IMG/VR virus record: IMGVR_UViG_3300014770_000007
Coordinates: 1-39,589 of that record
Direction: 5' to 3' (one strand)
DNA from: a virus
Taxonomy: Duplodnaviria > Heunggongvirae > Uroviricota > Caudoviricetes
Length of the DNA stretch: 39,589 nucleotides
The translations under genes and the position numbers were made by a program. Numbering within the stretch: the first letter of the stretch is position 1; the number at the start of each line of letters is the position of its first letter. This document shows positions 34,981 through 35,598 of this stretch, one piece after another. The notes under the pieces were generated by a model. That model was not told where the DNA came from. It saw nothing but the letters and a program-made list of their open reading frames with translations, and made no database searches.

Positions 34981-35598
34981 TCACAGATCTCCCATCGCTT
35001 TAACCAGTGCGTCGTAGTGTTTGTCAAACGCGGTTAACTGGACGTTCGTTAGTTTGTATTTGGCTTTAAACAATTCACGCTCAACAAGCGCGTATAACTC
35101 CTGATTACTGGCGTCTGACAGGTGAGCAAGCATGAGTTGTTTTTCAGCCAGGTATGTTACAGCAAACTTCGGATCGTGTCGGACAATTGAAGAGGTGTTA
35201 TCCAGCAGATCACACAGTTTTATAGTTTTCACCACAGGTTCAGCCCGTGATAAATGGTCGATATCCCGTGCTTTACGCTTAACACGGTTGCCGTGGTGTG
35301 GACGACTCACATCAGTAAGCTGATCAACATAACGTGCCACAGTCTCACCGAACTGCGAACACACATCACCCACGGTCACGGGCGTATCTTCAACGACGTC
35401 ATGCAGCCAGGCAGCGGTAACCATATCCGGCGTACCACCATAGCGTTTAACCAGTTCAGCAACGTTCCGGCAGTGGTTCACATATGGGTCGTTGGTGTAC
35501 TTACGAAGTTGATCACCGTGTGCTGCTGTTGCGAATTGTTCAGGTGTCATCATAGTTTTTGATAGTGGTGAAAAACCAAGTTGAAGTTTAGTGCTCAT
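34981..35598 (-). CDS. HD-domain (p)ppGpp-type small alarmone hydrolase (SpoT/RelA hydrolase-like)
   Basis: AAWLHDVVEDT with upstream His (AHGDQ...) matches the SpoT/RelA/Mesh1 HD hydrolase signature; start at residue 3 of track ORF (ATG). Confidence 0.75.
   Translation of the reverse strand: MSTKLQLGFSPLSKTMMTPEQFATAAHGDQLRKYTNDPYVNHCRNVAELVKRYGGTPDMVTAAWLHDVVEDTPVTVGDVCSQFGETVARYVDQLTDVSRPHHGNRVKRKARDIDHLSRAEPVVKTIKLCDLLDNTSSIVRHDPKFAVTYLAEKQLMLAHLSDASNQELYALVERELFKAKYKLTNVQLTAFDKHYDALVKAMGDL

Follow-up and report, generated by a model that had tools for sequence, protein, structure and literature searches.

What would a tailed phage do with a hydrolase of the RelA/SpoT homologue (RSH) superfamily that is not accompanied by a synthetase? 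The question is raised by a minus-strand open reading frame (ORF) in a 39,589-nucleotide stretch of viral DNA (Caudoviricetes; IMG/VR record IMGVR_UViG_3300014770_000007, positions 1 to 39,589), hereafter the window. A preliminary description had assigned the 205-amino acid (aa) product to the RelA/SpoT/Mesh1-type hydrolases and suggested that it degrades host alarmones to counter defence signalling. We find that this is a real gene, encoding a stand-alone RSH-type hydrolase, a small alarmone hydrolase (SAH), with an intact active site, and we consider it probable that, as a whole, the best explanation of the locus is a SAH of the PaSpo type that erases the products of host RSH synthetases. 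The SAH belongs to a family of phage enzymes that is already described and partly tested, and the gene, the family and the proposed role are all present in the literature or databases.

A stand-alone RSH-type hydrolase with an intact active site

The ORF consists of 205 codons plus a stop and runs on the minus strand, a detail that the preliminary description did not give, from the ATG at 35598-35596 to the TGA at 34983-34981; the plus-strand ORFs that overlap this region are taken to be spurious. The features of the gene that bear on the enzyme are the following.

34981..35598, minus strand: full ORF of the stand-alone SAH, with an RSH-type HD domain (profiles, PDB matches, structural model)
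34981..35550, minus strand: conserved core of the enzyme (residues 17-205; 189 aa and the stop), which has 100% identity to the Bas82_0088 product of Escherichia phage KarinMuster
35503..35505, minus strand: codon of R32, aligned with MESH1 R24, the nucleobase-stacking Arg of motif HD1, invariant in the family
35473..35475, minus strand: codon of H42, a metal ligand, aligned with MESH1 H35
35386..35403, minus strand: H66-D67-V-V-E70-D71, the HD metal-binding dyad and the ED catalytic dyad, equivalent to MESH1 H61 D62 and E65 D66
35197..35211, minus strand: D130-L-L-D-N134, with the metal ligand D130 and the ribose/base-contacting N134, equivalent to MESH1 D122 and N126

Both motifs on which the initial assignment was based, A26-H27-G28-D29-Q30 and A62-A63-W64-L65-H66-D67-V68-V69-E70-D71-T72, are present in the product, and profile searches agree with the proposed family at a similarity well above chance. 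The protein scores 56 bits with Pfam HD_4 (PF13328), for which the cutoff is 27.2 (E = 5e-15), matches the NCBIfam profile TIGR00691 spoT_relA within its N-terminal hydrolase part (profile positions 4-122 of 687, E = 1.4e-20) and, in PHROGs, matches phrog_990, ‘metal-dependent phosphohydrolase’ (E = 2.6e-39). The generic HD family PF01966 was a marginal Pfam match (22.7 bits). A sequence search of the PDB retrieved 22 RSH-hydrolase entries at E ≤ 0.004, including Lmo0812, human and fly MESH1, the hydrolase domains of Rel and SpoT, bacterial SAHs and Aph1. The Pfam search of the protein yielded HD families only, with no synthetase, TGS or ACT domain; the SAH is a single-domain protein, as the preliminary description had proposed in noting the lack of a synthetase domain.

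In the HMMER alignment to human MESH1, residues R32, H42, H66, D67, E70, D71, D130 and N134 correspond to R24, H35, H61, D62, E65, D66, D122 and N126, respectively, and all eight are invariant across an alignment of 52 homologues (44-99% identity). Following published MESH1 and Rel structures, we take these positions to be the metal ligands, the ED catalytic dyad and the nucleotide-contacting residues.

The fold agrees with the profiles. An AlphaFold (AF2) model built from the 52-sequence alignment reached a mean predicted local distance difference test score (pLDDT) of 94 and a predicted template modelling score of 0.88; it replaced a single-sequence model that was unusable (pLDDT 53). The 50 top Foldseek matches in the PDB are exclusively Mesh1, SAH, RelH, SpoT, Rel and Aph1 structures. 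The best of them is human MESH1, with a template modelling (TM) score of 0.72 when normalized by the query and 0.82 by the target and a root-mean-square deviation of 2.1 Å, and the further best matches include the Pseudomonas aeruginosa SAH, RelH and the hydrolase domains of SpoT and Rel. Among viral predicted structures, those significant matches that have a name are labelled as phage proteins of the HD type or as ‘(p)ppGpp hydrolase’, besides two that are called ‘uncharacterized’. Membership in a different HD subfamily, of which the preliminary description had mentioned dNTPases, is rejected on the evidence of profiles, sequence and fold; no dNTPase or nucleotidase is found among the significant structure matches. 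The SAH is therefore predicted to be a catalytically competent, Mn2+-dependent 3'-pyrophosphohydrolase of the RSH superfamily.

Proposed function

Domain identity, active site, fold, kinship to PaSpo of Salmonella phage SSU5 and the stand-alone accessory context jointly show the enzyme class. Given the kinship to PaSpo, the literature on toxic small alarmone synthetases (toxSAS) and the pocket residues, a promiscuous 3'-pyrophosphohydrolase active on (p)ppGpp, (p)ppApp and pyrophosphorylated tRNA can be expected. A catalogue of phage SAHs dates from 2020, and co-expression of such enzymes was found to neutralise toxSAS toxins: PaSpo-SSU5 and the SAH of phage PVP-SE1 neutralise CapRel, PhRel, PhRel2, FaRel and FaRel2 in Escherichia coli, for PaSpo-SSU5 all of the toxSAS tested, and the bypass of alarmone-mediated defence by phage-encoded alarmone hydrolases was explicitly proposed in the same study (Jimmy et al. 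2020, PMC7229694). Kurata et al. found that four of these toxSAS pyrophosphorylate tRNA at its 3'-CCA end and that two SAHs, MESH1 and ATfaRel, allow tRNA modified in this way to be aminoacylated again in vitro, and the tRNA modification installed by FaRel2 is removed by PaSpo-SSU5, as stated by the authors (PMC11245113). Furthermore, CapRel-SJ46, which occurs in Salmonella and E. coli prophages, senses a capsid protein and aborts infection via tRNA pyrophosphorylation (PMC9712102).

In the scenario that we favour, the SAH would be expressed during infection from an operon of small accessory genes and would strip the 3'-pyrophosphate added by host RSH-type synthetases. It would act on (p)ppGpp, on (p)ppApp and, probably above all, on tRNA whose 3'-CCA end has been pyrophosphorylated by toxSAS abortive-infection systems such as CapRel, with the outcome that translation and nucleotide pools would stay permissive for phage growth. 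The 3'-CCA pyrophosphate of tRNA, which the preliminary description did not consider, is a likely substrate beside (p)ppGpp and (p)ppApp, judging from the activities of the relatives. The suggestion of alarmone degradation and counter-defence that was made there is thus supported by our analysis; it is not new, given that it was proposed in 2020 for phage SAHs and that the 50%-identical SSU5 PaSpo neutralises toxSAS. A more specific reading, in which the SAH is a counter-defence factor of virulent Nonanavirus-type phages that repairs CapRel-type pyrophosphorylated tRNA and drains (pp)pApp and (p)ppGpp, is put forward here only tentatively, as possible rather than probable.

Several points weigh against the explanation as a PaSpo-type eraser. 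Both the substrate range, which we infer from a homologue and from the pocket residues, and the benefit to infection are proposals. The PaSpo assignment reflects pairwise similarity, whereas the subfamily is defined by hidden Markov models and phylogeny (Atkinson 2011; Jimmy 2020). The enzyme of the window carries a foreign 16-aa leader (see below), which could alter its expression or activity, and the promoter proposed below for its operon rests on a consensus match, promoter-like matches in the region being fewer than in shuffled sequence. Finally, the literature searched contained no report of a phage SAH rescuing infection from a toxSAS.

The strongest competitor of this explanation is a role restricted to the stringent response, whereby the SAH would lower the (p)ppGpp made by RelA or SpoT under the stress of infection and keep host transcription and translation running, with no part in countering toxSAS. 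The domain is indeed that of SpoT and Rel hydrolases, the pocket keeps R32, N134 and S137, which on our inferred mapping are guanine contacts in Rel enzymes, and the same role has been proposed by the authors of other phage genomes (PMC12846349). However, E. coli already has SpoT, and PaSpo-SSU5 acts on the products of both tRNA-modifying and (pp)pApp-making toxSAS, so that one would not expect this family to be confined to ppGpp; moreover, the gene is found in only some close relatives, an accessory pattern that is easier to reconcile with defence and counter-defence than with a core physiological need. We consider this alternative unlikely.

A different substrate is less probable still. Under this alternative, the SAH would be a phosphatase acting on NADPH, as has been reported for metazoan MESH1, on 3'-phosphoadenosine-5'-phosphosulfate (PAPS) or on another signalling nucleotide, and would rewire metabolism. 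Structures of human MESH1 bound to NADPH and to PAPS head the list of structural matches, and SAHs are known to be promiscuous (PMC9765508). Yet identity to MESH1 is 27-28%, compared with 50% to PaSpo-SSU5, for which activity on RSH products in the cell is documented; no metabolic partner genes are found nearby, and the NADPH and PAPS roles derive exclusively from distant structural matches.

If the more specific counter-defence reading is true, carriers of the gene would resist a whole class of RSH-based abortive-infection systems, and a phage ‘eraser’ acting on a macromolecular (tRNA) immune modification would for the first time be demonstrated in an actual infection. The enzyme is a tractable test case because its core is identical in Bas82, a publicly available, small E. 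coli K-12 phage, and because CapRel-SJ46 and the assays exist.

The phage and the distribution of the gene

Over long stretches, the window shares ~96% identity with Escherichia phages AVIO78A, PJ16, PDP46 and KarinMuster (Bas82), and it shares ~92% with the Salmonella phages Sasha, Sergei and Solent. These phages are siphoviruses of the 9NA-like group and belong to the genera Nonanavirus and Sashavirus; by sequence similarity, the window is a Nonanavirus/Sashavirus-type E. coli siphophage. Bas82_0088 of KarinMuster, a member of the BASEL collection, is identical to residues 17-205 of the SAH and is annotated as ‘metal-dependent phosphohydrolase’; the BASEL paper neither discusses the SAH gene nor mentions toxSAS. 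Orthologues in AVIO78A, PJ16, PDP46, Sashavirus 536P12/BDX09P1 and SP069/FSL SP-062 are 91-99% identical and occupy the same genomic position; five E. coli phages other than Bas82 have copies that are 98-99% identical, and those of SP069 and FSL SP-062 are ~91% identical. Comparison of the phage records showed that the gene is absent from Sasha, Sergei, Solent and 9NA.

The body of the gene was not detected by blastn in any of 5,426 complete E. coli genomes, the only match being limited to its first 51 nucleotides (nt) in three chromosomes; thus, this allele is not a common prophage gene. Homologues with 40-50% identity are found in 375 plasmid records, mostly from Enterobacteriaceae, the best-scoring plasmids among the matches listed being ~100-125 kb long, and 286 phage records, many jumbo phages included, contain a homologue at E ≤ 1e-5. 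A word-indexed search recovered 1,833 homologous proteins at E ≤ 1e-5, and an exhaustive search of 1.84 billion proteins gave 19,991 representative clusters at E ≤ 1e-3, of which 4,883 reach E ≤ 1e-10 and 264 reach E ≤ 1e-30.

Deposited names of the relatives vary between ‘metal-dependent phosphohydrolase’, ‘polyphosphate hydrolase’, ‘hypothetical protein’ and, wrongly, ‘RelA/SpoT family (p)ppGpp synthetase’. In AVIO78A (segment 2277-3076), the ‘polyphosphate hydrolase’ label sits on a 77-aa upstream gene and the real HD gene is called hypothetical, and in the PDP46 record (PQ783785.1) the hydrolase-only gene bears the synthetase label. Correction of these annotations is a further use of the present analysis.

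Some distant homologues are fused to other domains. In the 1,078-aa metagenomic protein P0124, a PaSpo-like HD_4 domain (residues 72-195) is joined to transglutaminase-like and ART-PolyVal domains in a polyvalent-type arrangement, and proteins of this class are associated with counter-defence; this fusion lends weak support to a defence-related reading. Other homologues, of 350-460 aa, contain additional domains without annotation or match HEPN_Swt1, DUF1653 or metallophosphatase weakly. Most of the extra regions in these distant fusions have no Pfam match, and the fusions are suggestive only as hints to function.

Operon and gene neighbourhood

The SAH gene lies towards the 3' end of a minus-strand operon, which is delimited by the following elements.

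34017..38199, minus strand: ~15 tightly packed, mostly tiny genes, comprising a ParB-like gene, small unknowns, the SAH and then five small genes
33990..34010, either strand: bidirectional intrinsic-terminator-like hairpin, AGCGGGG...CCCCGCT with T-runs, closing the SAH operon
38234..38262, minus strand: best sigma-70-like promoter match in the region, TTGACA-17-GATAAT, 11 of 12 positions, 5' of the ParB-like gene (consensus match only)
35607..35611, minus strand: Shine-Dalgarno-like AAGGG, 8 nt 5' of the ATG at 35598 (read from the sequence)

A terminator is annotated at the same place in Sasha and AVIO78A, and 38262-38234 is a candidate start for a transcription unit running from the ParB-like gene through the SAH to the terminator. 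The TGA of the gene preceding the SAH (35603-35601) falls between the AAGGG motif and the ATG of the SAH, and the next gene begins within a few bases of the SAH stop; the SAH is thus part of a tightly packed operon.

The interval from the ParB-like gene to the terminator (34017-37432, minus strand) contains ~14 small genes in the window versus three in Sasha (segment 1332-2220), and its gene content also differs in AVIO78A and Bas82. Given this difference and the absence of the gene from Sasha, Sergei, Solent and 9NA, we conclude that the SAH sits in a hypervariable accessory stretch, a run of small genes at the 3' end of the operon, which agrees with the accessory operon proposed previously. 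The interval has the appearance of a hotspot of gene gain and loss, in which other counter-defence candidates may reside.

SAHs can also serve as immunity proteins, and the SAH could conceivably be the antitoxin partner of a phage-borne RSH toxin, for example MuF-Apk or a toxSAS, and shield the infected cell from it in the manner of Aph1 or ATfaRel. SAHs act in this way beside FaRel and beside the MuF-Apk2 toxins of temperate phages, and the window does encode a MuF-family protein. However, this 319-aa protein has no toxin domain at its C-terminus, and its Mu_F domain stops at residue 307. The 20 window ORFs scanned with Pfam, the large ORFs included, yielded no RelA_SpoT synthetase, and none is named in the compared stretches of Bas82, AVIO78A and Sasha. 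Furthermore, the neighbours of the SAH are tiny proteins without known function, and the similarity to Aph1 is weak (20.6 bits). Immunity to an own toxin is therefore rejected for the window, beyond which ~19 kb of the genome lie, and we regard it as highly improbable overall. On metagenomic phage contigs, homologues likewise stand alone among small genes, with no linked RSH synthetase toxin, and the PADLOC models matched neither the SAH nor nine of its neighbours.

Additional observations concern other genes of the region. The longest ORF upstream of the SAH (35601-35996, minus strand) encodes 131 aa with a C-terminal CxxC Zn-ribbon-like motif and a weak match to phrog_323, ‘transcriptional regulator, D5-like’. 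It overlaps the preceding 162-aa ORF (35857-36345, minus strand; phrog_614) by 140 nt, and its true start is probably further downstream, since Bas82_0086, which corresponds to it by position and by its conserved 3' end, has 112 aa. Just 5' of the candidate promoter, 38271-38666 (minus strand) encodes a 131-aa protein with a YAcAr domain (YspA/cpYpsA-related SLOG, PF10686, E = 1e-19), for which the Bas82 annotation reads ‘GTP-binding domain’. In conflict systems, SLOG domains are predicted to act as modules that bind nucleotides, so that this protein could be another accessory gene related to nucleotide signals. Beyond the terminator, the plus-strand ORF 33173..33985, coding for a 270-aa protein without known function (phrog_25538), contains at 33764-33860 a perfect 21-bp tandem repeat of 4.6 copies that encodes APVARVE five times; the Sasha orthologue is annotated with a longer ‘direct tandem repeat region’, so the copy number differs between phages. 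Finally, 30025-30948 (plus strand) encodes a full-length homologue of RdgC (PF04381, E = 5e-115), a recombination-associated DNA-binding protein.

A leader from a deleted neighbouring gene

The N-terminus of the SAH differs from that of its relatives.

35551..35598, minus strand: 16-codon N-terminal leader MSTKLQLGFSPLSKTM, from the start of a deleted homologue of Bas82_0087 (protein and DNA alignment, model)

In the relatives, Bas82_0087 or other genes lie directly 5' of the enzyme, which starts at its own Met, equivalent to residue 17 here (35550), giving 189 aa. In Bas82, Bas82_0087 is an 81-aa gene between a Zn-ribbon gene and the SAH gene, and its first 16 codons are identical to the leader. 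DNA alignment with Bas82 segment 3765-4010 shows that ~200 nt, the body of Bas82_0087, are missing from the window; the breakpoint falls on a short TAT(C/G)ATG repeat. The body of the Bas82_0087 homologue being lost, its leader has become fused in frame to the SAH, together with its ribosome-binding site. The same 51 nt open DUF7446-family genes in three E. coli chromosomes among the 5,426 complete genomes searched by blastn. The structural model predicts disorder at the beginning of the leader, where pLDDT is below 50 at residues 1-3 and 5-10 (9 of the first 10); the mean is 45 over residues 1-10 and 77 over residues 11-20, and the leader is placed away from the fold. The fusion leaves the enzyme core unchanged.

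That the gene is a non-functional or poorly expressed remnant, decaying after the fusion impaired the enzyme, might be suggested by this unusual junction, by the ~200 nt missing relative to Bas82 and by an ORF opening with another gene's 16 codons, but it is hardly credible, because the fusion is in frame and keeps the Shine-Dalgarno motif of the lost gene, the 189-aa core matches Bas82_0088 at every residue and has all catalytic residues intact, and the leader is predicted to lie apart from the fold.

Comparison with known small alarmone hydrolases and RSH enzymes

Among experimentally studied proteins, PaSpo of Salmonella phage SSU5 (SSU5_099, AFL47026.1) is the closest relative of the window SAH, with 50% identity over 158 aa (138 bits, E = 9e-46). 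The scores of other known enzymes are far lower, namely 59.7 bits for Lmo0812, 55.5 for MESH1, 30.8 for PVP-SE1 gene 220, 28 for the P. aeruginosa SAH and 20.6 for Aph1, and this gap makes PaSpo clearly the nearest labelled group. Both the SSU5 protein and the window SAH are stand-alone, single-domain HD_4 proteins of enterobacterial phages with all catalytic residues. They differ in the C-terminal ~40 residues, which are unrelated, and in the foreign 16-aa leader, which only the window SAH has. The genomic settings differ as well: the 103-kb SSU5 record has genes for RepA- and ParA-like proteins, as a phage-plasmid would, whereas the phage of the window is a ~58-kb Nonanavirus-type siphophage.

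MESH1 (human HDDC3 and Drosophila Mesh1) shares the fold and an identical catalytic constellation with the window SAH at 27-28% identity. Its substrates include (p)ppGpp and (p)ppApp, and in vitro it also repairs tRNA that has been pyrophosphorylated; in contrast to the phage enzyme, it is metazoan, and its proposed physiological role is that of an NADPH phosphatase. The window SAH extends to residue 205, past the ~170 columns that align with the ~179-residue MESH1.

The SAHs of the PbcSpo subfamily, represented by Salmonella phage PVP-SE1 and by ATfaRel of Cellulomonas marina, are similarly phage-encoded or act as type IV antitoxins and neutralise toxSAS, but they belong to a different subfamily. 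In a tblastn search of three PVP-SE1 segments, gene 220 was the sole match at E < 0.01, with the first 74 residues aligned, and it is a candidate for the PbcSpo SAH of that phage.

SpoT and Rel have the HD fold and chemistry in common with the window SAH, but are long, multidomain proteins with synthetase and regulatory domains that the window SAH does not have. Aph1, a (p)ppApp-specific hydrolase, shares the HD superfamily fold and chemistry too, but lacks two helices and, on our mapping, has an Asp at the position of R32. With R32/K33 and N134/S137, the predicted pocket of the window SAH appears to resemble those of the (p)ppGpp-capable, guanine-contacting Rel hydrolases rather than the Asp signature of Aph1.

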